Virus record (IMG/VR): IMGVR_UViG_3300024346_006511
Span: 32,001 to 96,000 of that record
Direction: 5' to 3' (one strand)
Source: a virus
DNA length: 64,000 bases
Part shown: positions 2,211 to 63,045 of the stretch, in pieces
Layout: each line of letters begins with the position of its first letter
How positions within the stretch are numbered: the first letter of the stretch is position 1
Notes under the pieces: generated by a model
The model's input: only the letters and a program-made list of their open reading frames with translations
Told to the model about the DNA's origin: nothing
The model's database searches: none
Position numbers and translations under genes: made by a program

Positions 2211-3491
2211 TTATAATTTTGGTAAATCTAATTTAGGTAATGTTAATTGTATTTGTTTAGGAAATTCTGGAAGATTACTATCTAATAGTTCGACTATCCT
2301 TTCACTCATTTTCTCAAATGTAAACTCTTCTAAGATTACTCTTCTTTGCTTTCTAGCTCCTACTATGCAATCTTTATAATGTTTAAATGTTTTCTTATAT
2401 GCCTTAGATACATCTGAATCGCTAGGTGTAAACCAAGCAGCTTCTGTAATAATCATATCCTTAAGCACAGAAGAAGGATGTACTTTCTCAATTGTACCTC
2501 CGATCAGTATTGATAAATCTTTATCTAAGAAATCTGTTTGACCTGACCATCCTGAGGCAATAATAGGTTTGCCTGTAGTAGCAAATTCAGCTAACGGTCT
2601 ACCGTATCCTTCCCCTTTAGTATGGCTAACCATGACTTTAACTTTAGGGTGATTATATAGATCGTTCATTTCACCATCTGTTAATTCTCCATGTAGTAAG
2701 TATATGTTAGCTAACCTTCCTCCTTTTACTGTTTTTCTAATAGAGTCTATCTTGCTAAGTATCTTTTCTCTGTCTATAATAGAGGTAGAAGAGGTACTAC
2801 ATTTTAATATTAAAGCAGGTTGCTTCTGTTTTGTTTTAAACGTTTCTAAGAACGTCTTTACAGTGTAGCCTATATTCTTTCTATCGTGTCCAAAGTCTCC
2901 TTGCATCCAATGTCCTACACTAAGATAACAAAATGATTCTGGTATAGTATTAATATCTGAGGTAAACTCTGTCTTTGCTGATGTTTTAGTTTGAAAGTAT
3001 TTAGTAGTATCTACTCCTTCAAATAGAACCTCAATAGGCTTTTCTAATTTTAGTTCCTTAATCTTCTGATTTGTATTTTTATCTATTGCATCTACTACTG
3101 TATTAACAAATACATTCTTCGAGTGCTCAGAAGATGTTAGTATAAGATCCATCTTATTACATCCCTCTAACCAACCTCCATGGCATTGGTCAGTCTCAAT
3201 ACCAGCAGTAACGCCAATACTATACTTACCAACGTTTTGAAATTCATTCGGTACAGTAATCTGAATCCATATGTCAGGTTGAGTTTGAAGACCAGGTATA
3301 ATTAGAGACGATAATTCATCTTCTTTATGATCTTCTAGGTAACCAAATTTAGTATTACCCCAGCGTTGACTTATTATATTAACGTTGTATGTACCTGTAT
3401 TGACTATAGCTTTAACAAAGTCTCTTGACCTAGCTCCATATCCAGAGTAAGTATCTATAGGGCAACTTATAACTAGTGTTGATTTACTCAT
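2211..3491 (-). CDS. GT-B (GT4-like) glycosyltransferase
   Basis: SGYG N-terminal motif, RKN, and GEGYGRPLAE (E-x7-E). Confidence 0.85.
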   Translation of the reverse strand: MSKSTLVISCPIDTYSGYGARSRDFVKAIVNTGTYNVNIISQRWGNTKFGYLEDHKEDELSSLIIPGLQTQPDIWIQITVPNEFQNVGKYSIGVTAGIETDQCHGGWLEGCNKMDLILTSSEHSKNVFVNTVVDAIDKNTNQKIKELKLEKPIEVLFEGVDTTKYFQTKTSAKTEFTSDINTIPESFCYLSVGHWMQGDFGHDRKNIGYTVKTFLETFKTKQKQPALILKCSTSSTSIIDREKILSKIDSIRKTVKGGRLANIYLLHGELTDGEMNDLYNHPKVKVMVSHTKGEGYGRPLAEFATTGKPIIASGWSGQTDFLDKDLSILIGGTIEKVHPSSVLKDMIITEAAWFTPSDSDVSKAYKKTFKHYKDCIVGARKQRRVILEEFTFEKMSERIVELLDSNLPEFPKQIQLTLPKLDLPKL

Positions 3492-3492
3492 A

Positions 3493-4929
3493 TTAATAAC
3501 CTGTTAATTTATGTTTAATTAATTTACTTGGTTGATTTTCAACCTTAATAAGATCGTATCTAGGTCTAGGAACATAAGTCTCAAATGTTTCTTCTATAGC
3601 TTCTGCTATCCTATCACTCATTACTTTAGCTGTAAAGCCAGCTTCTTCTGACATAGCCCATTCTCTACCTTTAAGTCCTCTAGCATCTCTTTCTTCCTTA
3701 GGTAAGTTAAATACTTCTTCTAATCTATCTGCTACTGCTTCTGGAGAGCATCTATCGTCAAATATATACGGAGTAGGTACTGAACCTGCAAGAGAAATAT
3801 TATCTGGAAAGACTGGTAAGTTCCATTCTCCATGTTCTTTATACGTCCCTCTATGGTTAGAAGGTATATCAGCAGAAGGAGTATACCATTCTCCGTTCTC
3901 ATCTACGAATCTACTTTGATCTTGCATTCCACCGGTAACATTTGATATTGTCATCGTACCAGCAAGCATCGATTCAGTTAGAGATAATCCCCATCCTTCG
4001 TTTGATGATATCAACATTGTAACGTCTGCTAAGTTATACATACCGTTCATCTGGATAGGATTGATCTTAGTCGTAGAGAAGAATACATTAACGTACTCTG
4101 GATCACAGAGTGCATTCTTAACGGCGTTTAAGTCTGTACCGTGTTGGTCAACAGGAGCTGTATGCATTACTAACGCACACTTTTTAGCTTTTTCTTTTCC
4201 TATCTTATCACAGAATAGTTTAAAAGCTAGTATTACATCTGCTGGTCTCTTTCTCTGAATGTTTCTAGAGTTAAAGAAAGCAACAAATTCATACTCTTTA
4301 CCGTTGAATACGCCTTTTTTAAAGTTTAAAAACTCTTCATTCTCTTTTGCATTTTCAATAGGTCTAAAGATATCAGTATCTATTCCATGAGGAATATATT
4401 TTAATAGCTTATCATCTGCTTTGTTTCCTAATACTAATTGATTAATTAATTTAGTCTGCTTAGAAATACTAAGAAGAGTATCTACTGAATCGTAGTAGTT
4501 TTCATTGTACTTAGGTGCAGGAAACTCATCCCAGATGTTTAACCAGATGATAGGAATTTGGCTTCTAACTTCTCTTTCAATTTCAAATAACCAAATCCAA
4601 TATCTAGGATCAGTAAAGATAAAAATAGCATCAGGCTTTTCTCTCTTTAGAAGATCTCTAACTAATTGGGCATTACCGTATCCACTGTAAGGAAGTATCC
4701 TAACATCTGCATCCTCTATTTTAAGTTGCTTATTAATGTCAGCTGATAGGTCTAATACCTTTCCTTTATCAGCATGATCTACTGCTGCTCCTACGTTTAA
4801 CCAATTGTAACGGTGACCGTTATTGACTACAAACTCTCTAGCCATAGTAGCTATTCCTGAATGCATTCTGATATCATCACAGAGTAGTAGTATCTTCTTT
4901 CTATCTTCTTTTTTAATATAACCTTCCAT
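3493..4929 (-). CDS. GT-B (GT4-like) glycosyltransferase
   Basis: HSGIA, IPHGID, RNIQRK, NEGWGLSLTESM (E-x7-E). Confidence 0.88.
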   Translation of the reverse strand: MEGYIKKEDRKKILLLCDDIRMHSGIATMAREFVVNNGHRYNWLNVGAAVDHADKGKVLDLSADINKQLKIEDADVRILPYSGYGNAQLVRDLLKREKPDAIFIFTDPRYWIWLFEIEREVRSQIPIIWLNIWDEFPAPKYNENYYDSVDTLLSISKQTKLINQLVLGNKADDKLLKYIPHGIDTDIFRPIENAKENEEFLNFKKGVFNGKEYEFVAFFNSRNIQRKRPADVILAFKLFCDKIGKEKAKKCALVMHTAPVDQHGTDLNAVKNALCDPEYVNVFFSTTKINPIQMNGMYNLADVTMLISSNEGWGLSLTESMLAGTMTISNVTGGMQDQSRFVDENGEWYTPSADIPSNHRGTYKEHGEWNLPVFPDNISLAGSVPTPYIFDDRCSPEAVADRLEEVFNLPKEERDARGLKGREWAMSEEAGFTAKVMSDRIAEAIEETFETYVPRPRYDLIKVENQPSKLIKHKLTGY

Positions 4930-30375: not shown

Positions 30376-31287
30376 TTACTGTCTTAAAGTTTTTTCTATT
30401 CTGTAATCAGTATTAGTGAAAAAATCAGGAATAAACCTTGAATGAGTAGCTCTAATAGGGTTAATATCTAATCCTCCTCTTCTAGTATATAAACAAGATA
30501 CCATTAAATCTTCTGGTTGATATGCATCTGTTAAATGTTTAAATACCATTTCACAAATCTCTTCATGGAAGTGACTTACAGTTCTATGAGATACAATATA
30601 CTTCGCTACTGATTCAGGAGAAGGAATATTCTTTCCTTTCATTCTAATAAAGACATCTCCCCAGTCTGGTTGATTAGTTACTCTACAATTAGATCTTAAT
30701 AGGTTAGATCTTAACTTTACTTCTTTAGCCTCTTCTGATACAGTTTCTATTTCTAATTGAGAAGCATCTGAAGAGAAAGCAGTGAAGTCTATTTGATCTA
30801 AATCTGCAATCTCAGCTAAATCTTGATAACCTTCAAAAGATAATGCTTTACCGTCTTCTGAATCTGTGTAAAAACTTACTGTTGTATCTGTTTCAAGTAA
30901 CTTATCTAAATCACTTTTTACCTTCTCTTCAATCTGTATAATACAATCCACAGAAGTAGCTCCTAATCTAGTCATATTAAAAGAATTTAAGTATAACTTA
31001 ATAGATTTAGATTCTACGTGATATTGAGAGTTTGAAGGACATACAATTTTTAACATTCCTGCAACAGGTAAGCCTTTATCTGTAATTGCTGATACTTCAT
31101 AACAGTTCCAAGTATCTACTCCTACAAAGTCCTTATCAGTTAATCCATAGCCTTCTCTATTCAAATAGCGAGGTACTTTAACTAATAGCTCTGGTGCGTA
31201 GGTATCTTTATACCCGTCTCCACCTACTTTTCCTAAATGTTTAGACGCAATGTCTACTACTTCTTGATAATTTTTAACTTCTGCCAT
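30376..31287 (-). CDS. queF: preQ0 reductase QueF (bimodular type)
   Basis: ESKSIKLYLNSF, SNCRVTNQPDWG, FHEE, YTRRGGLDINP; start re-placed to MAEVK. Confidence 0.93.
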   Translation of the reverse strand: MAEVKNYQEVVDIASKHLGKVGGDGYKDTYAPELLVKVPRYLNREGYGLTDKDFVGVDTWNCYEVSAITDKGLPVAGMLKIVCPSNSQYHVESKSIKLYLNSFNMTRLGATSVDCIIQIEEKVKSDLDKLLETDTTVSFYTDSEDGKALSFEGYQDLAEIADLDQIDFTAFSSDASQLEIETVSEEAKEVKLRSNLLRSNCRVTNQPDWGDVFIRMKGKNIPSPESVAKYIVSHRTVSHFHEEICEMVFKHLTDAYQPEDLMVSCLYTRRGGLDINPIRATHSRFIPDFFTNTDYRIEKTLRQ

Positions 31288-31288
31288 A

Positions 31289-31654
31289 TTAACCTTTAAA
31301 TAATTGTTTTTTACCACCCTCATAAACATAAGCGTGTCCGTTTTCTATTAATAAATCATTAAGAGATTTTTCTTCTCCTTTGATGAATATTTCTGCAAGT
31401 ACTCTACCGTACTTACCTTTACCGTAAGATTGTATTTCAAACTTACCATCATTCATCTCTAAATATTTTTTCGTAAAATCAGAAGCAAGAAGACCTTTAG
31501 CTTTTTCTTCTAAGTTTCTTGTTCTCTTTTCCCAGGTATCTACACCTTTAAATCTAAGTCTTGCTTTAACCCAAGTACTGAATCCTAAGTCGATCATAAC
31601 ATCTGCTGTGTCACCATCAACTACTCTTAATAATTTTGCTCCGTATCTAAACAT
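31289..31654 (-). CDS. thermonuclease (SNase-like)
   Basis: RVVDGDT, RFKGVDTWE, GKYGRVLA, NGHA. Confidence 0.9.
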   Translation of the reverse strand: MFRYGAKLLRVVDGDTADVMIDLGFSTWVKARLRFKGVDTWEKRTRNLEEKAKGLLASDFTKKYLEMNDGKFEIQSYGKGKYGRVLAEIFIKGEEKSLNDLLIENGHAYVYEGGKKQLFKG

Positions 31655-32168
31655 TTATAAAATCTAAAATTTGTTCTACCCTTTGCATAGGGGAACCAGT
31701 TATCGTCAAATAAGGTTGACGTACACCTTCAAGAACAGCTTTAAACTCACTATCTATTTCCTTTCTCCATTGTTCATCTACACTTCTAACTCCATCGTCT
31801 ACTGAATCGAATTCAATAGGGAAATAAACATAATGAGTATATTCGCTCTTTATTCTATTCCAAGTATCTTCTATATAATCGTTCGTATATGTAGTTACTC
31901 CTTTCATAAATCTAGAGTAAACTAAAACATCCATATAACATCTATCTAATACTAAGTTATAAGGTTGAAGTAAAGCTTCCAAATGAAAACTACTAATAGC
32001 TAATTGAGTAGCATCGGTACCTTTTTCATTAATAGGAAATCCGTAACTACCTACTGTTCTAGTAGATTCATTAACAAACTCATACTTAGGTAATTTATTT
32101 TTAAGTAATTCGTAAACAGTAGTCTTACCTGTACTACTTGCTCCTACTAATGCTATTCTTTTTATCAT
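31647..32168 (-). CDS. P-loop nucleotide kinase (AAA_28/NadR-like)
   Basis: GASSTGKTT, LDRCYMD, DDGVR. Confidence 0.85.
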   Translation of the reverse strand: MIKRIALVGASSTGKTTVYELLKNKLPKYEFVNESTRTVGSYGFPINEKGTDATQLAISSFHLEALLQPYNLVLDRCYMDVLVYSRFMKGVTTYTNDYIEDTWNRIKSEYTHYVYFPIEFDSVDDGVRSVDEQWRKEIDSEFKAVLEGVRQPYLTITGSPMQRVEQILDFINV

Positions 32169-32713
32169 AAAGCTTCTCTTAAAAAGTTACACCACATATA
32201 TAACCCTCTGTCTCTTAAGATACGAAATAAATCTTCAAGCTCCACCTGAAAAGTATTAAATCTTTCTTCCATTATAATTTTACCTTCATCTACTCCAGCG
32301 GTAACTCTATGCAGAACAGTTCCTGCTATAGGGTACTTACCTTCGTTAATACCTTCGAAAGCTCTAATCTGAGGATCTTTACCTTTAAGTTCAGGGTACT
32401 CAGTTATTAAACCTGGATGCCCGTTAATTATAATATATTTTTCACATATAGAAGGAGGCATTATTCTTAACCAACCATGTAGAGTTATTAATGCTTCCGG
32501 AAAGTATACTAATAAGTCTTCATACTCTTCTTCATCAGGTTTATTACTAAAGGTAAAGTAACCTTGTTTTTCAATCCTAGGGTCTATAGTTCTAAGATGC
32601 TCAGGTCTATCGTTTGTAATAATCCGATCTGGCCATCTACCTAACGATTCAGCTATATCAGCTATTTCAGCTCCAGTCTGACTAAAAAATGCTATCCAAG
32701 TCTTAGTTGCCAT
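32165..32713 (-). CDS. PurN-like formyltransferase (DpdN-like preQ1 formyltransferase)
   Basis: FFSQTG, LHGWLRI, INGHPG, HRVTAGVDEG; lies in the deazaguanine operon. Confidence 0.8.
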   Translation of the reverse strand: MATKTWIAFFSQTGAEIADIAESLGRWPDRIITNDRPEHLRTIDPRIEKQGYFTFSNKPDEEEYEDLLVYFPEALITLHGWLRIMPPSICEKYIIINGHPGLITEYPELKGKDPQIRAFEGINEGKYPIAGTVLHRVTAGVDEGKIIMEERFNTFQVELEDLFRILRDRGLYMWCNFLREAL

Positions 32714-33506
32714 TAGTATACCATTTAAATTTCTGAATATTATTTTTAATTGTGCCTAACTGAATATCATCAATCTCAGAATTAATCAGTTCATGAAGTT
32801 TCTGTCTTTCTTTAGACCATAACCCATCTGATCCATATGATATACCTTTAATACCGTGAACTACAGGATTAGAAGTATCAAGTGAATATATCCAATCATA
32901 ATCGGAATGCTTATAAAAACTAAATTCTTGAGGTAATCCACATCCTAGTAAGTGATGAGGTTTAGCTGTATTGATCACACCGTCTCTAAGTAAATCTCCC
33001 AGTAGCTTAACACGTCCTAGCATCCAGCTAACATACTTGTTAGCATGAGGAACTGATTGTGTATAATACGAGTAATCAAATGATATAGCTATCATATCTA
33101 CATCTGCTGTCTTGTTCATATAGTTGTAGCAATCTACAATTTCATCATATGTCCTACCTTGAACAACTCCTATTTTACCACTACCTTCGTAACCGTATCC
33201 TTTATTAATCCAGTCTTCCATCTGGTCGCAAGTTTTACCAGCGTCTTCTAAAGCATCTGGGACTATATACCAAGTTGGTTTAAGTTCGTTAACCCATTTA
33301 TTAAATTTATCTGCATCGAAAGCCTCTTCTAATTCAAATATAGAGTTATCTAAAATAATCTCCCTACCTTTTACTGCTGCCTTTTTAAACTGATCTAAGT
33401 ACCCTTTATCTTCTTCAAATAAATGTACTAACGCATAGTCGTAGTCAGTATATCTCTGTACCTCTTCGAATATTTCTTTAGGACTTTCGTGTGCTATCTT
33501 TATCAT
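32703..33506 (-). CDS. dpdA: TGT-fold 7-deazaguanine transglycosylase (DpdA-like)
   Basis: ILDNS, PD, GVVQG, HHLLG, SLDTSNP; que gene context. Confidence 0.75.
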   Translation of the reverse strand: MIKIAHESPKEIFEEVQRYTDYDYALVHLFEEDKGYLDQFKKAAVKGREIILDNSIFELEEAFDADKFNKWVNELKPTWYIVPDALEDAGKTCDQMEDWINKGYGYEGSGKIGVVQGRTYDEIVDCYNYMNKTADVDMIAISFDYSYYTQSVPHANKYVSWMLGRVKLLGDLLRDGVINTAKPHHLLGCGLPQEFSFYKHSDYDWIYSLDTSNPVVHGIKGISYGSDGLWSKERQKLHELINSEIDDIQLGTIKNNIQKFKWYTNGN

Positions 33507-33693
33507 CTATATTTGTAGTATTTAATAGTGTTGACATAGTTCTTACTGAGTTATCGATAAGTTCTAATGCATGGTCAAGTTTAGTTTGATTCTTATCATA
33601 TTCATAAATTTCAGAATATGCTTTCTTTACAATATCGAATGGTAAGTAATCCTCACCGTCAATTGTAACTTTATGTTTCTCTAAATTAATCAT
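33478..33693 (-). CDS. hypothetical protein
   Basis: ORF overlapping its neighbours. Confidence 0.65.
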   Translation of the reverse strand: MINLEKHKVTIDGEDYLPFDIVKKAYSEIYEYDKNQTKLDHALELIDNSVRTMSTLLNTTNIDDKDSTRKS

Positions 33694-34228
33694 TAAAGAA
33701 CTGTTTTAAGTCAGGTCTGAAGTAATTAATCGATTTCATTACTTTTCTATCTCTTGTTCTATAGACAATGTACCGTCCTTCCGCAATCTTCTCAAAATGA
33801 CAGGCCTCACCTTGTTCCTTACTTCTTTGGCTGACACTCTGTATGGCTTCTTCTTCAGTTTTACAAGCTTTTGACATATTAGAAGCCTGTACCTCTTGAT
33901 ATGCTGGCCATATCTTATCTTTAAGGCCATGTAACATAGTACCGTTCCCAAGGGAAACATAAGTAATGTCGCACAAAGCGTCCAGAACTTCCACAATGTC
34001 CCCTCTTTCGCAAGCTTCTCTATATTCTTCGAGTTCTTCGAGGATAAAGTCATAAACGAATTGCCACTCTTTTTTACTTGGTATAGTTGGTTCATAGTTA
34101 TTAGGTTTTCCGAATGTTTTATTAAACGTTTCTACTTCATCTACGAAAGGAACTCCGTTAACCCAAACTGGTAGTGGTTCCATGTCTTTCATCTCATTCT
34201 CTGAGAATAAATTTAATTGTTTACTCAT
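33686..34228 (-). CDS. MazG-like (PRA-PH) NTP pyrophosphohydrolase
   Basis: EELEEY...EVLDALCDITYV, EVQASNMSK, KVMKS. Confidence 0.88.
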   Translation of the reverse strand: MSKQLNLFSENEMKDMEPLPVWVNGVPFVDEVETFNKTFGKPNNYEPTIPSKKEWQFVYDFILEELEEYREACERGDIVEVLDALCDITYVSLGNGTMLHGLKDKIWPAYQEVQASNMSKACKTEEEAIQSVSQRSKEQGEACHFEKIAEGRYIVYRTRDRKVMKSINYFRPDLKQFFND

Positions 34229-34664
34229 CTTTATTTAATTTATTTGTATTCTCTATCGGCATTGTTAATCCTCCAATGTAATTACCATCGGCTAGATGGA
34301 AGTATGGATCGTCTTGTGCTCTATCGTAATCATCTTCTAATCTTATGATATCGTCTTCTCCAAAATAAGTACCAGTTTGAACTTCTATAAATTGTACTAC
34401 TTCGTCAGTTTTATTCCAAGCTCTATGTTTAGCTTCTAATGGAATATGTATAGAACCTCCTGTTTTAACTGTATAGATTTCATCATCCAATACAACAGTT
34501 AGGACTCCTTCAACAACTGTCCACTGCTCACGTCTATTAGTATGATACTGGTAAGAAAGTCTTTGTCCAGGAGCTACAGTTATTAGTTTAACTTTAGTAA
34601 AGTCAGTATCTAATAATACATCATAACAACCCCAAGGTCTTTCATCGTGTTCTAATGCTTGCAT
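34221..34664 (-). CDS. mannose-6-phosphate isomerase type II C-terminal cupin
   Basis: RPWG, LSYQYH..RREQW, IEVQTG.YFGEDDIIRLEDDY. Confidence 0.88.
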   Translation of the reverse strand: MQALEHDERPWGCYDVLLDTDFTKVKLITVAPGQRLSYQYHTNRREQWTVVEGVLTVVLDDEIYTVKTGGSIHIPLEAKHRAWNKTDEVVQFIEVQTGTYFGEDDIIRLEDDYDRAQDDPYFHLADGNYIGGLTMPIENTNKLNKDE

Positions 34665-35365
34665 ATGCTTGCTAATTCTATGTTCTTATAAAACTCTGCT
34701 TTTGCTGAATCCTCATTTAAAAATGCTCCTGTTAACTTAGCAGTCTGCATTGAAGCTCCTCCATGCTTTACTCCTCTACATGATACACATGCATGAGTTG
34801 CATTTACCTGAACTGCTACTCCTAAATTACCTTCACATATCTTATCTACTGCATTATGAATAGCTACCGTTAACTGCTCTTGAATAGCTCCTCTTCTACC
34901 GAATTGCTCTACAATTCTATTAAGCTTAGACAGTCCTACTACCTTACCATCTTCTGATGCTATATAAGCAATACTTACTGTACCTCTAATAGCTTGATGG
35001 TGGTGAGAACACATAGACGTTACTGGTATATTACTCTCCTGTACAATGCCGTCATATCCATCAGAAGGAAATGCTGTAATACGGTCTAAAGGGCTATATC
35101 TTCCAGCCCACAAGTCATTAACATAAGCTTTAGCTACTCTCATTGGAGTATCTGCAGAGTTAGGATCGTCTTTATAGTCACATCCTAATGCAGTTAAAAA
35201 GTTTGCATATGCTTCTGATGCTCTTTTTATAATAACTTGCTTTTCATGATCAGTAAGTCTAGCTTCTGGTCCTTCTGTCTTTTGTTTTTCCGCTAGTTGA
35301 GTTGAAATACCGTTAGCGAATCCGGCTCTTACTAATTCTGTTCCTTCTATAAACTTTTTAGGCAT
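34652..35365 (-). CDS. folE: GTP cyclohydrolase I
   Basis: TPMRVAK, SMCSHH, GLSKLNR, IQEQLT, HACVSCRGV. Confidence 0.95.
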   Translation of the reverse strand: MPKKFIEGTELVRAGFANGISTQLAEKQKTEGPEARLTDHEKQVIIKRASEAYANFLTALGCDYKDDPNSADTPMRVAKAYVNDLWAGRYSPLDRITAFPSDGYDGIVQESNIPVTSMCSHHHQAIRGTVSIAYIASEDGKVVGLSKLNRIVEQFGRRGAIQEQLTVAIHNAVDKICEGNLGVAVQVNATHACVSCRGVKHGGASMQTAKLTGAFLNEDSAKAEFYKNIELASICKH

Positions 35366-35374
35366 AATATATAA

Positions 35375-35403
35375 TTTGTTTTTACTGAGGTTCTACGACT
35401 CAT
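35375..35403 (-). promoter_or_regulatory. preQ1 class I riboswitch-like aptamer (folE leader)
   Basis: UGAG-UCGUAGAAC-CUCA-GU-AAAAACAAA between promoter and ATG. Confidence 0.75.
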
Positions 35404-35412
35404 TCTTAATTA

Positions 35413-35442
35413 AAGATAAGAAATTTATTTTAAACATCCAAA
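35413..35442 (-). promoter_or_regulatory. early/middle promoter motif
   Basis: TTTG-N18-CTTATCTT. Confidence 0.7.
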
Positions 35443-35834
35443 TAATCTTGAATAGTTTTGGAAGTTTCTTTTTCCCAAGGGTATACAATCCAACCGTAAT
35501 CATCAGGTATCTCTTTTGCGAAATATTCTGGTTTTGCTTTCGAGGATGTTTTGTAATGTAGAGTAGCAAACTTAGGATTAAACATTTCTTCTCTCCATTT
35601 TAATATTGTCTCTCCACTATCTGCTATATCATCTATAATTAACAGTCTAGGGTAGTGATTACTTTTATATTCAAAGTAAGGAATATCAAAACGATGTGAA
35701 TACATTATTGCTAAGATAGTACCTCCTCTAGGAATTCCTGTTACGTAATCTATTTTTCCTTTTGTTTGTGCGTGTATGTTATCGAGGAGTTTATAAACAT
35801 CCTCCCAACTATAATAAACTCTTTTTACTCCCAT
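35430..35834 (-). CDS. type I phosphoribosyltransferase (Gpt-like)
   Basis: GIPRGG, LIIDDIADSGET, WIVYPWE. Confidence 0.88.
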   Translation of the reverse strand: MGVKRVYYSWEDVYKLLDNIHAQTKGKIDYVTGIPRGGTILAIMYSHRFDIPYFEYKSNHYPRLLIIDDIADSGETILKWREEMFNPKFATLHYKTSSKAKPEYFAKEIPDDYGWIVYPWEKETSKTIQDYLDV

Positions 35835-35998
35835 GTATTATTCGTTACCCAGTTGCCAGTAGAATAGTTTGCTATAGAGGTATTACCTACTGATTGTAAT
35901 TTCTCTTTTAAATGGTCAAATTGAGCTGGAGTAATATTATAGTGGTGTACTCCTTCTATGAATCCTTTTAACCACTGTACAAATTCTTTTTCATTCAT
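35825..35998 (-). CDS. small hypothetical protein (57 aa; not in ORF track)
   Basis: [16 protein letters not shown]...NNTWE; overlaps both neighbours. Confidence 0.65.
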
Positions 35999-36299
35999 AA
36001 TCTAAACCGAAAAATTTATAGTTGTTAATAACTGCCTCTTTTTCTCCTGCTTCGATTGCTTCTTCTTCACTATCGAAAATTGCTTCTACAGGGCATTCCG
36101 GAACACAAGCTCCACAGTCGATACATTCTTCTGGGTTTATGTATAGGCTTTTACCGATTAAGTCTTCTTTGGACATTCCTGCTACTTCTGCTCCTGCTCC
36201 TGTAATATCTATAGGACCGTGAATACAGTCTACAGGGCAAACTGCTACACAGGCTGTATCGCAAGTACTAACGCAAGGTGATCCAATTATAAAACTCAT
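35991..36299 (-). CDS. dicluster Fe-S ferredoxin
   Basis: [17 protein letters not shown] and [12 protein letters not shown]. Confidence 0.92.
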
Positions 36300-37078
36300 T
36301 ATACTTCTCTTTGATCTTCAAACGCAATAATATGCGGTCTCCAGGTTAATCTATATCCATTATCTCTAACCCAATCAAACATGACTGGATAAGACTTTTG
36401 TAATGCTGCTCGAGTATCCCCAGCAGGCATAAACCATACTTTATCCTTAGGTGCATCCAATTGCTCTATACAGTCCATAATCTCTTCTAATGCTCCTTCG
36501 TCTTTCCCGTCCCATACAGGCTTTAAATGGTAGTCTGAATGGTATGCAATGCTTTCTTTTATAGCAGGGTAATTAAGTCTAAACTTATTATGCTGCTTTA
36601 TCATTTTCTCATCTGTAATCTTTCCTTCAGGAGTTTCGACACCGAGTACAGGTACCGAATTGCTGAACTTCGGACTGATTGAAAGTAGATTAATAGGATA
36701 ATCAGTAGGTAGAAAATGGCTACCTTCATTCTCCATAGTAATGAAGATATTTCTTTCATTTGCTAAATGTGTTAATTCGTTTACTAGTTTCTTATGCATA
36801 GAAGGACTTCCTCCTGTTAACATCATTTCTGATATATGAGGATTATCGTCATATGCTTTTATAATATCATTAAATGAGTATTTTCCTTTTTCTGGATGTA
36901 TAGAAGTATACCAGCTATCACACCATCCACCTTCTCCGAAATAACACCTATGAGTACAGCCAGTAGTCCTAATAACCACTGTAGGATAACCTGCTCTGGA
37001 TCCTTCTGATTGTACTGCCGTGTATATTTCAACGATCGGTAAGTTTTTATCGTAATCTTCTATTCTACCTAGGCTCAT
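36299..37078 (-). CDS. queE: 7-carboxy-7-deazaguanine synthase (radical SAM)
   Basis: [38 protein letters not shown]. Confidence 0.9.
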
Positions 37079-37535
37079 ATAATGCTGTGTTTTTACCGTG
37101 TTCTCTAAATTCAACTTTAGCTAGCTTTACCCTGCCGTCTGTCTCTTCTAACAAAAATGGATTAATTTTATTGTAGAGGTACTCTGCAAATTTCTCTGCT
37201 CCTACTGCTTCAATTACTCTTAGCTGAATAGTGCCGTTTCTATCTAATTTTTTGAAGTACCCGGCAAGTTGAGGATCATCTTCCGCAATTATAACCGTAT
37301 GATCAAACATATAGTCCATCCATGCTTTAGGAGACATTCCGTCTATCGTAGCTTTAGCTCTTTTCATGCCTCCAAAGTCCCATACCCAGTTCCTATCATC
37401 TAATTCTCCTTCAAACCATAGTTTAAAAGATACTCCGTACCCATGTAAGAATCTACAGTGAGTAGTTTCTGCTTTCCATTGTCTAAAACAAGTACTAAAC
37501 CCGTCAAAGACTTTTGTTGATTGAAATTTTCCCAT
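37065..37535 (-). CDS. queD: 6-carboxytetrahydropterin synthase
   Basis: HCRFLHGY, WVWDFG, FDH, GAE, EFREHGKN. Confidence 0.9.
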   Translation of the reverse strand: MGKFQSTKVFDGFSTCFRQWKAETTHCRFLHGYGVSFKLWFEGELDDRNWVWDFGGMKRAKATIDGMSPKAWMDYMFDHTVIIAEDDPQLAGYFKKLDRNGTIQLRVIEAVGAEKFAEYLYNKINPFLLEETDGRVKLAKVEFREHGKNTALYEPR

Positions 37536-37545
37536 AACTTATTTT

Positions 37546-37785
37546 TTAAACTAATTCTTCTATAATTCCTATTCCTTCACTTAATATAAGTAAACCTACT
37601 GCTAAATCTAAACTATAGCATAATGCAGCATAACCTAAAATACGGATAGCTGATTTAATAAATGAAATTGTTTGGTGTAATTTTGGATCTGGTACTTTCT
37701 GACCATTGATCTCAAGAGAGGCATTATTCTCTCTTTCTTCTCTATTATAGAGTTCTTGCATAACCTTTTTTTCTAATTTTTTCAT
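37546..37785 (-). CDS. small hypothetical membrane-associated protein
   Basis: HQTISFIKSAIRILGY...EGIGIIEELV; first gene of the queD operon. Confidence 0.75.
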   Translation of the reverse strand: MKKLEKKVMQELYNREERENNASLEINGQKVPDPKLHQTISFIKSAIRILGYAALCYSLDLAVGLLILSEGIGIIEELV

Positions 37786-37814
37786 AAGTGTTTTTAAAGT
37801 GGTACTACGACACT
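37786..37814 (-). promoter_or_regulatory. preQ1 class I riboswitch-like aptamer (leader of hyp-queD-queE operon)
   Basis: AGUG-UCGUAGUAC-CACU-UU-AAAAACAC directly before ATG. Confidence 0.75.
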
Positions 37815-37830
37815 ATAGTCATATATATAT

Positions 37831-37860
37831 AATATAAGAACTTTTTATTTCATAAGCAAC
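37831..37860 (-). promoter_or_regulatory. early/middle promoter motif
   Basis: GTTG-N18-CTTATATT. Confidence 0.7.
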
Positions 37861-41615: not shown

Positions 41616-41689
41616 TGGAGAATATCGGAGTCGAACCGATGACCTCCTGCGTGCAAGGCAGGCGCTCTAGCCAGCTGAGCTAATCCCCC
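41616..41689 (-). tRNA. tRNA-Ala(UGC)
   Basis: GGGGGATTAGCTCAGCTGGCTAGAGCGCCTGCCTTGCACGCAGGAGGTCATCGGTTCGACTCCGATATTCTCCA; cloverleaf with G3:U70; no encoded CCA. Confidence 0.96.
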
Positions 41690-41695
41690 TACCTG

Positions 41696-41842
41696 CTAAA
41701 TAGTGCGGTTTCTTCTTACTCCGTCCCACTTAGCTTTCCTAGAATTACCCAGCATAGCGTATCTACTTATTCTCTGATTGACATTTGATCTTTCAGAATT
41801 TAACTGGGTATTCCCGTTAGTTGATTGGTCTCGATTATGCAT
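41696..41842 (-). CDS. small hypothetical protein (48 aa; not in ORF track)
   Basis: MHNRDQSTNGNTQLNSER...KWDGVRRNRTI; overlaps the queC stop and exactly fills the gap to the tRNA. Confidence 0.55.
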   Translation of the reverse strand: MHNRDQSTNGNTQLNSERSNVNQRISRYAMLGNSRKAKWDGVRRNRTI

Positions 41843-42653
41843 ATTCTGCTAGTAATTTTGCTACATGTGTTTTCGCAACTTCATAATCAACTGGTCCAGT
41901 TTCGTCTTCATATTGAACGGGATCATTAACACCCAAATCAATGAATGCTTCAATACGTTCAACTGATGAAGCGCTTTTGTAGTCAGAGTTTCCACTTGGA
42001 TATGGTTTGTACGAGGTATTCGTTCTTTTGTATACTTCGTTAAAATCCAATTCCAATTCTTTAATGAGTTTCTGTCCATCTTTTAAGATTCCTAGTTTAT
42101 CTGTATCTAAATAAGGAGTAAAATACCCTACTTTCTCAGCTTCCCAATTACCTAATCTAAAGGCATTATCGTCAGCATCTCTAAACTCTTGTCTACAGTC
42201 AGGATAGATTGCATGATCACCAGCATGAATTCCTAATGCGATATCTGTATCGTTACCATTAGATGTAGCTGCTGATAATGCTACTGCTTGTACTAAAGAA
42301 GCAAATATCTTGTTCCTATTAGGTACTACTGTAGCTTTCATGTTATCTTCTTCATAATGACCTTCCGGTACATCTTCTCCTCCTTCAGTTAGTGCTGAAT
42401 TTAGTAAGTTAACTAAACCGTCTAGTTTAATAACTTGATAGTTAATCTTGCAACCTCCGAAACATTCGTTATCAGAAGGGCAAGTCTCATTAATATAATT
42501 TACTAATGATTGTGCTCTTTCTAGCTCAACTCTATGCTTCTGACCGTAATCAAAAGATATAGCAGTTACTTGATCGTACTCTTTTAAACATCTGAGTAAT
42601 AATGTAGAGGAGTCCATCCCTCCGCTTAGACTTACAACAACATTTTTTGCCAT
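41835..42653 (-). CDS. queC: 7-cyano-7-deazaguanine synthase (Cys-less zinc-site variant)
   Basis: SLSGGMDS, FDYGQKH, TVVPNRN, HAGDHAIYPDCR. Confidence 0.92.
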   Translation of the reverse strand: MAKNVVVSLSGGMDSSTLLLRCLKEYDQVTAISFDYGQKHRVELERAQSLVNYINETCPSDNECFGGCKINYQVIKLDGLVNLLNSALTEGGEDVPEGHYEEDNMKATVVPNRNKIFASLVQAVALSAATSNGNDTDIALGIHAGDHAIYPDCRQEFRDADDNAFRLGNWEAEKVGYFTPYLDTDKLGILKDGQKLIKELELDFNEVYKRTNTSYKPYPSGNSDYKSASSVERIEAFIDLGVNDPVQYEDETGPVDYEVAKTHVAKLLAEYA

Positions 42654-42702
42654 CTTAATTATATTTAAAAATTGCCAGGTATTAAAAACGTATAGGCGAA
42701 CG

Positions 42703-43005
42703 TTATTCTAATATAGAAGATAAGGAATTTCCTATTGTCTTCCAACGGTCTGCATATTCTTTTAATGAATATACTTTTTTATTAGGGTCTCCATTAAGTA
42801 ATTCTCTTGCAACTGTTTTCAGTGCTGCTCCAAAATTACCTGGGTAAGAGACTGTCTTAATGTAAGGAGTATCGTTGTCTCCTTTAATAACTCTTTCATA
42901 AACTGTAAATCCACCACTAGCAGATTTAGAGATGAAAAATGGTTCCATAACAGGATCTTTTACGATCGTATCTGTAGAGGGTATTGAATCTGGTTTTCGT
43001 AACAT
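42703..43005 (-). CDS. hypothetical protein
   Basis: ORF in operon. Confidence 0.75.
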   Translation of the reverse strand: MLRKPDSIPSTDTIVKDPVMEPFFISKSASGGFTVYERVIKGDNDTPYIKTVSYPGNFGAALKTVARELLNGDPNKKVYSLKEYADRWKTIGNSLSSILE

Positions 43006-62261: not shown

Positions 62262-63012
62262 AAAAAAAGTTGATCGTCACAGGGACGTCGATGTCCTCCC
62301 CAACACCGTCTTCATCCACATGGTAGACTTTAAATTCAACATCTGGTTGTACTCTTGCGTATTCTTCTCTCAATGCTCTTGCATCTTGAGCTAATAGCCC
62401 TTGGTCAACAAACTGTCTTATTGTAGATACCTCTCTATCTCCATTTACTGAAGTAATAATGTACTTCATTCTAGTTGATAGTGTAGCGCTACTTTCTCTG
62501 TTGATTTTCTTTAGTCCTTCTACTTCTCTGTCAATGTTTTTATCATCTCCATGAGTAAGAAGTTTAAAAGTTACTTCATTACCACTTTTAGGTAGTCCAA
62601 AAGTAAACTCTCTCTGTCCTTGTTCAAGACTATCGAAATCTAACTCTTTATCTTTGATTTCAGTTAAATCAACTGTAATATCTTTACCGTTATATTGAAT
62701 ATCGTAATCTTTACCGTAAGATAATATACGTGCTGCAACCATAATTGCATTTTTGTCTCCAATAAGTAAATCGTTGTAGTTGAAATCTGATACGATTAGT
62801 GATTGTAATAACTTATCAATTACTACTCCTTTTTCAATGTAGTTTTGATTCGTTAAGATATCTTCCTCTTTGGCAGTCATATACTTCATTTCGACTTTAC
62901 CACTGGCCAGAGGGTGATCGGATGGGTATAACTTACCTTTAGATGGAATGTCTACCTGTTCGGTAGGGATTTGAAATTTAGGCTTTTCTGCCTTTTTTAC
63001 TTGATTTTCCAT
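62248..63012 (-). CDS. tail assembly chaperone / T4 gp26-like baseplate assembly protein
   Basis: IPSKG..Y, MTAKEEDIL, GDKNAIM..ARILSYG, ends NFFWPDA; lies between tube and tape measure. Confidence 0.75.
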   Translation of the reverse strand: MENQVKKAEKPKFQIPTEQVDIPSKGKLYPSDHPLASGKVEMKYMTAKEEDILTNQNYIEKGVVIDKLLQSLIVSDFNYNDLLIGDKNAIMVAARILSYGKDYDIQYNGKDITVDLTEIKDKELDFDSLEQGQREFTFGLPKSGNEVTFKLLTHGDDKNIDREVEGLKKINRESSATLSTRMKYIITSVNGDREVSTIRQFVDQGLLAQDARALREEYARVQPDVEFKVYHVDEDGVGEDIDVPVTINFFWPDA

Positions 63013-63045
63013 AAATTATTAATAATTAGAACTAGTTTATATATA

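Follow-up and report, generated by a model that had tools for sequence, protein, structure and literature searches.

The immuto phages, in which every G of the DNA is replaced by formyl-preQ1, share with the phage analyzed here FolE, QueD, QueE, QueC, QueF, a DpdA3-like and a DpdN-like protein (Cui et al. 2023, PMC10516641); their description deals with enzymes and modification only, and the words riboswitch and regulat- are absent from it. The closest described RNAs are the preQ1-I riboswitches, whose alpha-site comprises a P1-closing G-C pair, the O6 of its G contacting the aminomethyl group of the ligand, U6, a specificity C that directly adjoins the 5' end of the P1 3' strand and in types II and III follows an A, the final A of the A-rich L3 and, in the aptamer of T. 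tengcongensis (Tte), a C7-G11-C30 ceiling (PMC11625349, PMC10622847). Here we analyze a 64,000-nucleotide window, corresponding to bases 32001-96000 of the 156-kb IMG/VR virus record IMGVR_UViG_3300024346_006511, in which two short minus-strand leader elements head the folE block and the queD-queE block of a 7-deazaguanine pathway. We consider it likely, judging from the sequence, that each element is a miniature preQ1-I-like aptamer of the H-type pseudoknot kind, which would work independently of a Shine-Dalgarno (SD) sequence as a translational OFF switch in the 5' leader of a phage mRNA.

A conserved structured element in two leaders of one pathway

The element consists of a 4-bp hairpin (P1) with the 9-nt loop UCGUAGNAC and of an AAAAAC-A tail, and is present in exactly two copies in the 156-kb phage genome (Table 1; coordinates are window positions). 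The original prediction had placed two minus-strand elements before folE and before the 79-aa open reading frame (ORF) that leads the queD block, and both were found: a pattern search of the 64-kb window with TCGTAG-N-AC-N6-AAAAAC returned exactly two matches, with zero mismatches. The start given for the second stem (37814) is correct, while that of the first lies at 35402 and not at 35403. As had also been stated, the two stems differ in sequence yet pair in both copies, and their loops and tails hardly differ. From 34 distinct copies of the element we built a covariance model (R1), which in the entire 156-kb genome recovered only elements 1 and 2 (45.3 and 41.6 bits), the best other match being at 12.5 bits; with just two sites genome-wide, the element is not a general phage promoter or terminator motif. 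Element 1 lies within the 64-nt gap between the stop of the phosphoribosyltransferase (PRTase) gene and the start of folE, its tail C 12 nt from the folE AUG, and element 2 in a 76-nt gap directly before the 79-aa ORF, its tail C 4 nt from the AUG.

Two collections of IMG/VR loci place the element in a single gene context. When FolE loci were fetched irrespective of the motif, approximately 60 out of 80 carried the hairpin at the same place. A gene-blind pattern scan, which put no constraint on stem position 1 or on complementarity at position 3, gave at least 137 matches; among the 137 matches listed, the stem is fully paired in 134, and the ORF next downstream is FolE in 65, one homologous to the 79-aa ORF in 60, QueD in 3, QueE in 3 and FolE2 in 2, the other four being contig ends or a chance match. 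Thus, 133 of these 137 precede FolE, FolE2, QueD, QueE or the lead ORF of the queD operon. FolE2 (PF02649) is a non-homologous GTP cyclohydrolase I, and the element stands before it in two loci (L200:8333-8942 and L238, minus strand, ~3067-4110); since it goes with two unrelated enzymes of one step, the RNA tracks the pathway and not a particular gene. These data support a conserved structured RNA that is exclusive to 7-deazaguanine biosynthesis genes.

The genomic region has ~74% DNA identity to Flavobacterium immuto phages, whose folE leader carries the element with the stem GGAG/CUCC, and in which a second copy is absent before the queD block. Searching for the exact motif in one genome each of 185,579 prokaryotic species gave 19 matches, all of them chance with the exception of one mis-binned phage contig. 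On 151 Bacteroidota genomes R1 found no match, and the Rfam PreQ1 model (RF00522) found nothing over its cut-off, its best match lying inside an ORF. A 5.9-kb contig of a 'Verrucomicrobiales' metagenome-assembled genome (L098, NYWG01000135.1) carries both aptamer copies 2.3 kb apart, together with folE, and we take it, with near certainty, for phage DNA that was binned with a bacterial assembly.

An alignment of the leaders of relatives, which had been proposed as a check for covariation, revealed compensatory changes at three of the four P1 pairs (pair 1 UA/AU/GC, pair 2 GC/AU, pair 3 AU/UA). P1 is 99.3% paired across the 34 distinct sequences, while controls in which the partner strand was slid by 1-3 columns reach at most 54%. 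The first sequence collection had demanded at least three of four stem pairs, and was repeated afterwards with a free stem; 47 of the 50 unique loop-plus-tail matches pair, the three unpaired ones being chance matches out of context, and another, three-quarters paired and 69 nt from an ATG, is also chance-like.

Invariant in the element are the closing G-C pair with the U behind it, the G-A-G positions of the loop, the AC adjoining the P1 3' strand, and AAAA with the C that follows (G8, C18, T9, A16 and C17 are invariant in the alignment of the 34 distinct sequences, A1). The tail carries at least four A's and then C, with A as the next base in 46 of 47 unique sequences; L3 measures 4-9 nt (mode 7), 2-13 nt separate the tail C from the AUG, and the length of the A-run tracks the length of P1. 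A leader element that acts without a ligand, be it an mRNA stabilizer, a ribosome stand-by or enhancer site or a cold-responsive structure, would fit the marginal stability of the hairpin, and the A-rich single strand beside it could favor SD-independent initiation. However, a generic stabilizer does not need strict invariance of nine loop and tail positions, and of all leaders in the 156-kb genome only two, both of one pathway, carry the element, which makes such an explanation highly improbable.

Comparison with preQ1-I riboswitches

The aptamer reading that we prefer draws on the correspondence of these invariant positions to G5-C16, U6, G11, the type II/III AC with its specificity C, A29 and C30. 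By sequence, every alpha-site position has an invariant or near-invariant counterpart in the phage element. The T. tengcongensis aptamer, with which the original prediction had compared the two copies, is in current nomenclature type II and not type I. The U-A pair noted in the folE copy in place of C9-G33 is not conserved in relatives, where the corresponding tail +3 position is A, U, G or C.

Like the type II aptamers (T. tengcongensis and B. subtilis queC; RF00522), the element has a short, G-C-closed P1, a loop that starts with U-C-G and contains A-G, an AC with the specificity C before the P1 3' strand, and an A-rich L3 in which the A's are followed by C-A. It also shares their position in leaders of 7-deazaguanine biosynthesis genes, and is terminator-free like Tte, whose control is translational. 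It differs in a P1 of 4 bp instead of 5, an L2 of 2 nt instead of 3-5, a U (or A/G) instead of C at loop position 4 with an unconserved tail partner, a tail without the AGG Shine-Dalgarno, and its occurrence in phages only, not in bacteria. The change at position 4 and the loss of its conserved partner reduce P2 to one candidate G-C pair. Bacterial Tte-like aptamers fetched from Bacillota have the loop UCGCAG, 2-4 nt and AC, with 8-10 nt before C-A-A-G-G; one phage variant (L288) reads UCGCAG-U-AC, and L3 is mostly 7 nt with the 4-bp phage P1, versus 8-10 nt with 5 bp in the bacterial set.

The E. coli type III aptamer provides a second comparison. In the 30-mer, G5 is the floor and C14 the specificity base, so that its loop would also be 9 nt, and the RNA still binds preQ1 (~52 nM) when P1 is shortened by one pair (PMC10622847). 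The phage element shares with it (PDB 8fza, PMC10622847) the small loop, a spacing of two residues from ceiling base to specificity C, and the AC motif. The loop of type III is rich in pyrimidines and has UU following P1, a U-A ceiling and a full, buried AAGG SD, whereas that of the phage is purine-rich, with a candidate G-C ceiling and no SD. The phage element thus probably works as a preQ1-I type II-like RNA, of which it would be a new variant and not a demonstrated member.

Proposed control of translation and competing explanations

No SD-like sequence was detected in the tail and no terminator after either copy, in agreement with the SD-less initiation region that had been predicted. Translation in Bacteroidota starts independently of an SD, with leader structure and upstream A's tuning initiation (PMC6847099); absence of an SD from the tail is thus expected for an SD-blind Bacteroidota host, and, with neither SD nor terminator, control via the A-rich initiation region is the natural reading. 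In the mechanism that we propose, the phage's own 7-deazaguanine product, preQ1 or its precursor preQ0, would accumulate and base pair with the loop-terminal C. A pair of the loop G with the tail C would cap the bound ligand, which would itself rest by stacking on the G-C that closes the 4-bp P1, and the A-run would dock into the P1 minor groove. This fold would lock the single-stranded A-rich stretch 2-13 nt upstream of the AUG, which SD-blind Bacteroidota ribosomes would need in unstructured form; the docked A-run and the tail C would remove the landing zone and sterically block the 30S subunit. Translation of folE and of the queD-queE block would fall, amounting to feedback OFF control of the entry steps of the pathway. 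Since the folE copy is located in an intercistronic gap with no terminator upstream, it could act on its own as well as on read-through transcripts. Ligand sensing and repression are what we infer here, and we offer as proposals the docking of the pseudoknot, the identity of the ligand, and which way and how strongly expression would be regulated.

In the leader of copy 2, an alternative hairpin (37795-37823, minus strand), in which UAUGAC pairs with GUCGUA of the aptamer 5' half at -5.7 kcal/mol, competes with P1. It was rejected as an expression platform, being kept in the closest relatives only.

Several results weigh against a preQ1-I-like switch. RF00522, which had been suggested as a check, recognizes neither copy: with a gathering cut-off of 39 bits it gave no match, at gathering or at E<=10, on the window or on slices of 2.6 kb and 101 nt, and both copies score below ~9 bits; on the whole phage genome it returned two unrelated weak matches only. 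The RF00522 consensus is type I-like with a 12-nt loop, and four bona fide-looking Tte-like bacterial aptamers reach only 29.7-37.5 bits on it. The miss is therefore explicable, since the model also places true-looking Tte-like aptamers below gathering. Those four lie upstream of SD-AUG in Bacillota genomes (L128, L129, L131 and L132, ~1504-1541). The two type II models, R2 and R3, the latter built from 11 bacterial Tte-like type II aptamers, gave no significant match in the window; on the 101-nt folE leader R3 scored 4.3 bits in the expected register, which is not significant. In the reverse test, R1 run on bacterial aptamers gave 14.5 bits (E 0.5) at one true site. Of the match to the Tte aptamer that had been claimed, the pocket positions hold as invariant, and a significant score on RF00522 or on the Tte-like R3 is missing.

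The pseudoknot and the stem also weigh on this side. The loop G and tail C of the P2 candidate are both invariant and give no covariation signal, and the second P2 pair of Tte has no conserved counterpart in the phage element. P1 alone is weak, at -1.5 to -3.9 kcal/mol, and no better than shuffles, as is expected for an aptamer that needs tertiary contacts; in element 1 it is the minimum free energy fold (-1.5 kcal/mol). The scans described above yielded no bacterial copy, and hence no independent lineage, and a phage that replaces all of its G (PMC10516641) might seem to need little feedback repression.

A folE leader variant (L306:340-400, on the same contig as L371) has the loop UUUUAACAC and a tail U in place of the usual C. 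Its loop G to A and tail C to U changes are the sole candidate compensatory change for the pseudoknot pair, and constitute a singleton that may be a decaying copy. A scan for this A/U variant returned its own contig only, and more distant FolE loci, examined for pseudoknot covariation, were mostly without the element.

The same fold could have a natural ligand other than preQ1, such as preQ0, formylated preQ1, another intermediate or guanine, and would then be a specificity variant. The failure of the element on both covariance models, its shorter L2 and P1 and the missing second P2 pair are in line with this idea, as is the DNA end product of the cultured relative, which is formyl-preQ1, with no dPreQ1 detected (PMC10516641); a second, different leader RNA that heads queC hints at more than one signal. 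Nevertheless, all described preQ1 alpha-site positions are retained, including the floor G, whose O6 contacts the aminomethyl group, and QueF, the preQ1-forming enzyme, is encoded by five of five aptamer-bearing contigs tested, and we thus regard another ligand as unlikely. We note that presence or absence of QueF does not discriminate between aptamer-bearing and other contigs.

The element could also be an operator hairpin for a phage or host RNA-binding protein, acting as translational repressor or processing factor, with no small molecule bound. A small hairpin with an invariant loop by the start codon resembles phage translational operators, and homology to riboswitches was not found at the level of covariance models. 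In this case, however, one would not expect the invariant positions to match a known small-molecule pocket one for one, or A-run length to follow P1 length, or the element to stand before first genes of one pathway that include two non-homologous GTP cyclohydrolases and three others. No candidate gene for such a binding protein was identified, and an operator appears unlikely to us, somewhat less plausible than a switch with another ligand.

For the preQ1-I-like switch, confirmation of binding would have several consequences. A viral DNA-hypermodification pathway would for the first time be known to be under riboswitch control, which would imply that phages regulate the synthesis of an anti-restriction base by metabolite feedback, not by timing alone. 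The architecture of the switch (4-bp P1, 9-nt loop, single ceiling pair) would be shorter than any catalogued preQ1-I type, and it would represent natural riboswitch control of translation in a lineage whose ribosomes ignore the Shine-Dalgarno sequence. It also brings to light that the Rfam PreQ1 model has a blind spot where aptamers are type II-like, a type that it under-detects. The original prediction knew of no riboswitch control of phage DNA hypermodification, and we likewise found no paper joining a riboswitch to phage 7-deazaguanine DNA modification in the literature searched, which is short of most subscription journals. Since a cultured phage-host pair carries the element (immuto phages and Flavobacterium sp. 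LMO8), the claim is directly testable.

The queC leader, gene neighborhood and related RNAs

The leader of queC (~42668-42714, minus strand) carries a different conserved H-type pseudoknot candidate, with a 5-bp P1 and a loop GCC able to pair with a downstream GGC. Its P1 is AACGU/ACGUU in the window, and AGCGU/ACGCU, AGGAU/AUCCU or CGGAU/AUCCG elsewhere. The RNA was found in ~45 distinct QueC leaders, where it is 95.6% paired overall and three P1 pairs covary; two pseudoknot variants show compensating changes (UCCC with GGGA, GGCCC with GGGUC). It has no Rfam match, and in 401 Bacteroidota genomes it occurred only at the level of a reversed-pattern control, not above chance. A wider reading, which we hold as doubtful, would be a virus-only circuit of two RNA sensors, in which a 7-deazaguanine, maybe other than preQ1, would act through the 27-28-nt aptamer to gate folE and queD-queE, and the queC pseudoknot would sense a second signal. 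If this were true, few natural riboswitches would be as small as this aptamer, and none before it would have been shown to function in a Bacteroidota system with neither SD nor terminator.

Table 1. Elements, genes and promoter-like boxes of the locus (window positions)
Feature	Position	Strand	Remarks
Element 1	35375..35402	-	folE leader; P1 UGAG/CUCA, 9-nt loop UCGUAGAAC, L3 GUAAAAA, then C-A
Element 2	37788..37814	-	leader of 79-aa ORF-queD-queE block; P1 AGUG/CACU, loop UCGUAGUAC, L3 UUAAAAA, then C-A
Promoter-like box AATAAA, 4 nt, TTATCTT	35413..35429	-	10 nt upstream of element 1; putative promoter
Promoter-like box AATAAA, 6 nt, TTATATT	37831..37849	-	16 nt upstream of element 2
folE (GTP cyclohydrolase I)	34652..35365	-	first gene after element 1; Pfam PF01227 (GTP_cyclohydroI), E 2.4e-42
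DpdA-like DNA transglycosylase	32703..33506	-	downstream in folE block; homology to annotated immuto DpdA, phrog_19058
PurN-like formyltransferase (DpdN-like)	32165..32713	-	Pfam PF00551; Cui et al. 2023, PMC10516641
79-aa ORF	37546..37785	-	first gene after element 2; hydrophobic C-terminus, no known family
queD (PTPS)	37065..37535	-	Pfam PF01242
queE (radical SAM)	36299..37078	-	Pfam PF04055 (Radical_SAM); homology to immuto QueE
4Fe-4S ferredoxin	35991..36299	-	Pfam Fer4
PRTase	35430..35834	-	last gene of element 2 block; Pfam PF00156 (Pribosyltran), phrog_8995
queC	41835..42653	-	preceded by a different conserved pseudoknot, not by this element
queF-like domain matches	30442..31026	-	converted from G000 62442-63026

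The names that the original prediction had given to the flanking genes agree with Pfam (GTP_cyclohydroI, PTPS, Radical_SAM, Fer4 and Pribosyltran). The block behind element 2 has the order 79-aa ORF-queD-queE-ferredoxin-57-aa ORF-PRTase, and queE likely starts at the ATG at 37078, overlapping the end of queD. The blocks headed by the elements (31647-35834, minus strand) also hold the PRTase, a MazG-like pyrophosphohydrolase, a cupin and a P-loop kinase-like protein, which are compatible with nucleotide-level handling of a modified base.

A promoter motif had been predicted upstream of each element. Both copies are indeed preceded by a shared box, AATAAA, 3-7 nt, TTAT-N-TT, for which a promoter function is putative; a sigma-70 promoter scan, which is uninformative for Bacteroidota-type promoters, gave nothing at either leader. 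Relatives that lack the hairpin retain the box before folE, with a short leader, indicating that the element is a modular insertion. The related box TAAA, 4-9 nt, YTTATMTT occurs 9 times versus 2.9 expected, at window positions 953, 5027, 20316, 23937, 51562, 53941 and 55036 and in the two leaders, and may define a phage promoter class.

The leader of the que operon of Streptococcus phage Dp-1 had no Rfam match. For element 2, the only weak Rfam match was the DUF805 RNA motif (RF03081), at 14.4 bits and far below its gathering cut-off of 51, with only stem and tail aligned. This RNA, which is common in Bacteroidota, shares a first hairpin GUG...CAC followed by U-U-A-AAAAAC, but is 68 nt long, with a different 10-nt loop, an obligatory second hairpin, a conserved 3' block and another gene context. 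Identity with it was rejected after viewing true members, which have two hairpins and the 3' block. In Bacteroidota loci L109-L120, the first DUF805 hairpin reads GUGG, 10 nt, CCAC, then U-U-A and an A-run ending in C, and is H-type-aptamer-like. The DUF805 RNA was above cut-off in 18 of the 151 sampled Bacteroidota genomes, often in multiple copies.

Near queC, a tRNA gene (41616-41689, minus strand; Rfam 66.8 bits) is located between queC and a gene pair for a sulfotransferase-like protein and a carbamoyltransferase.

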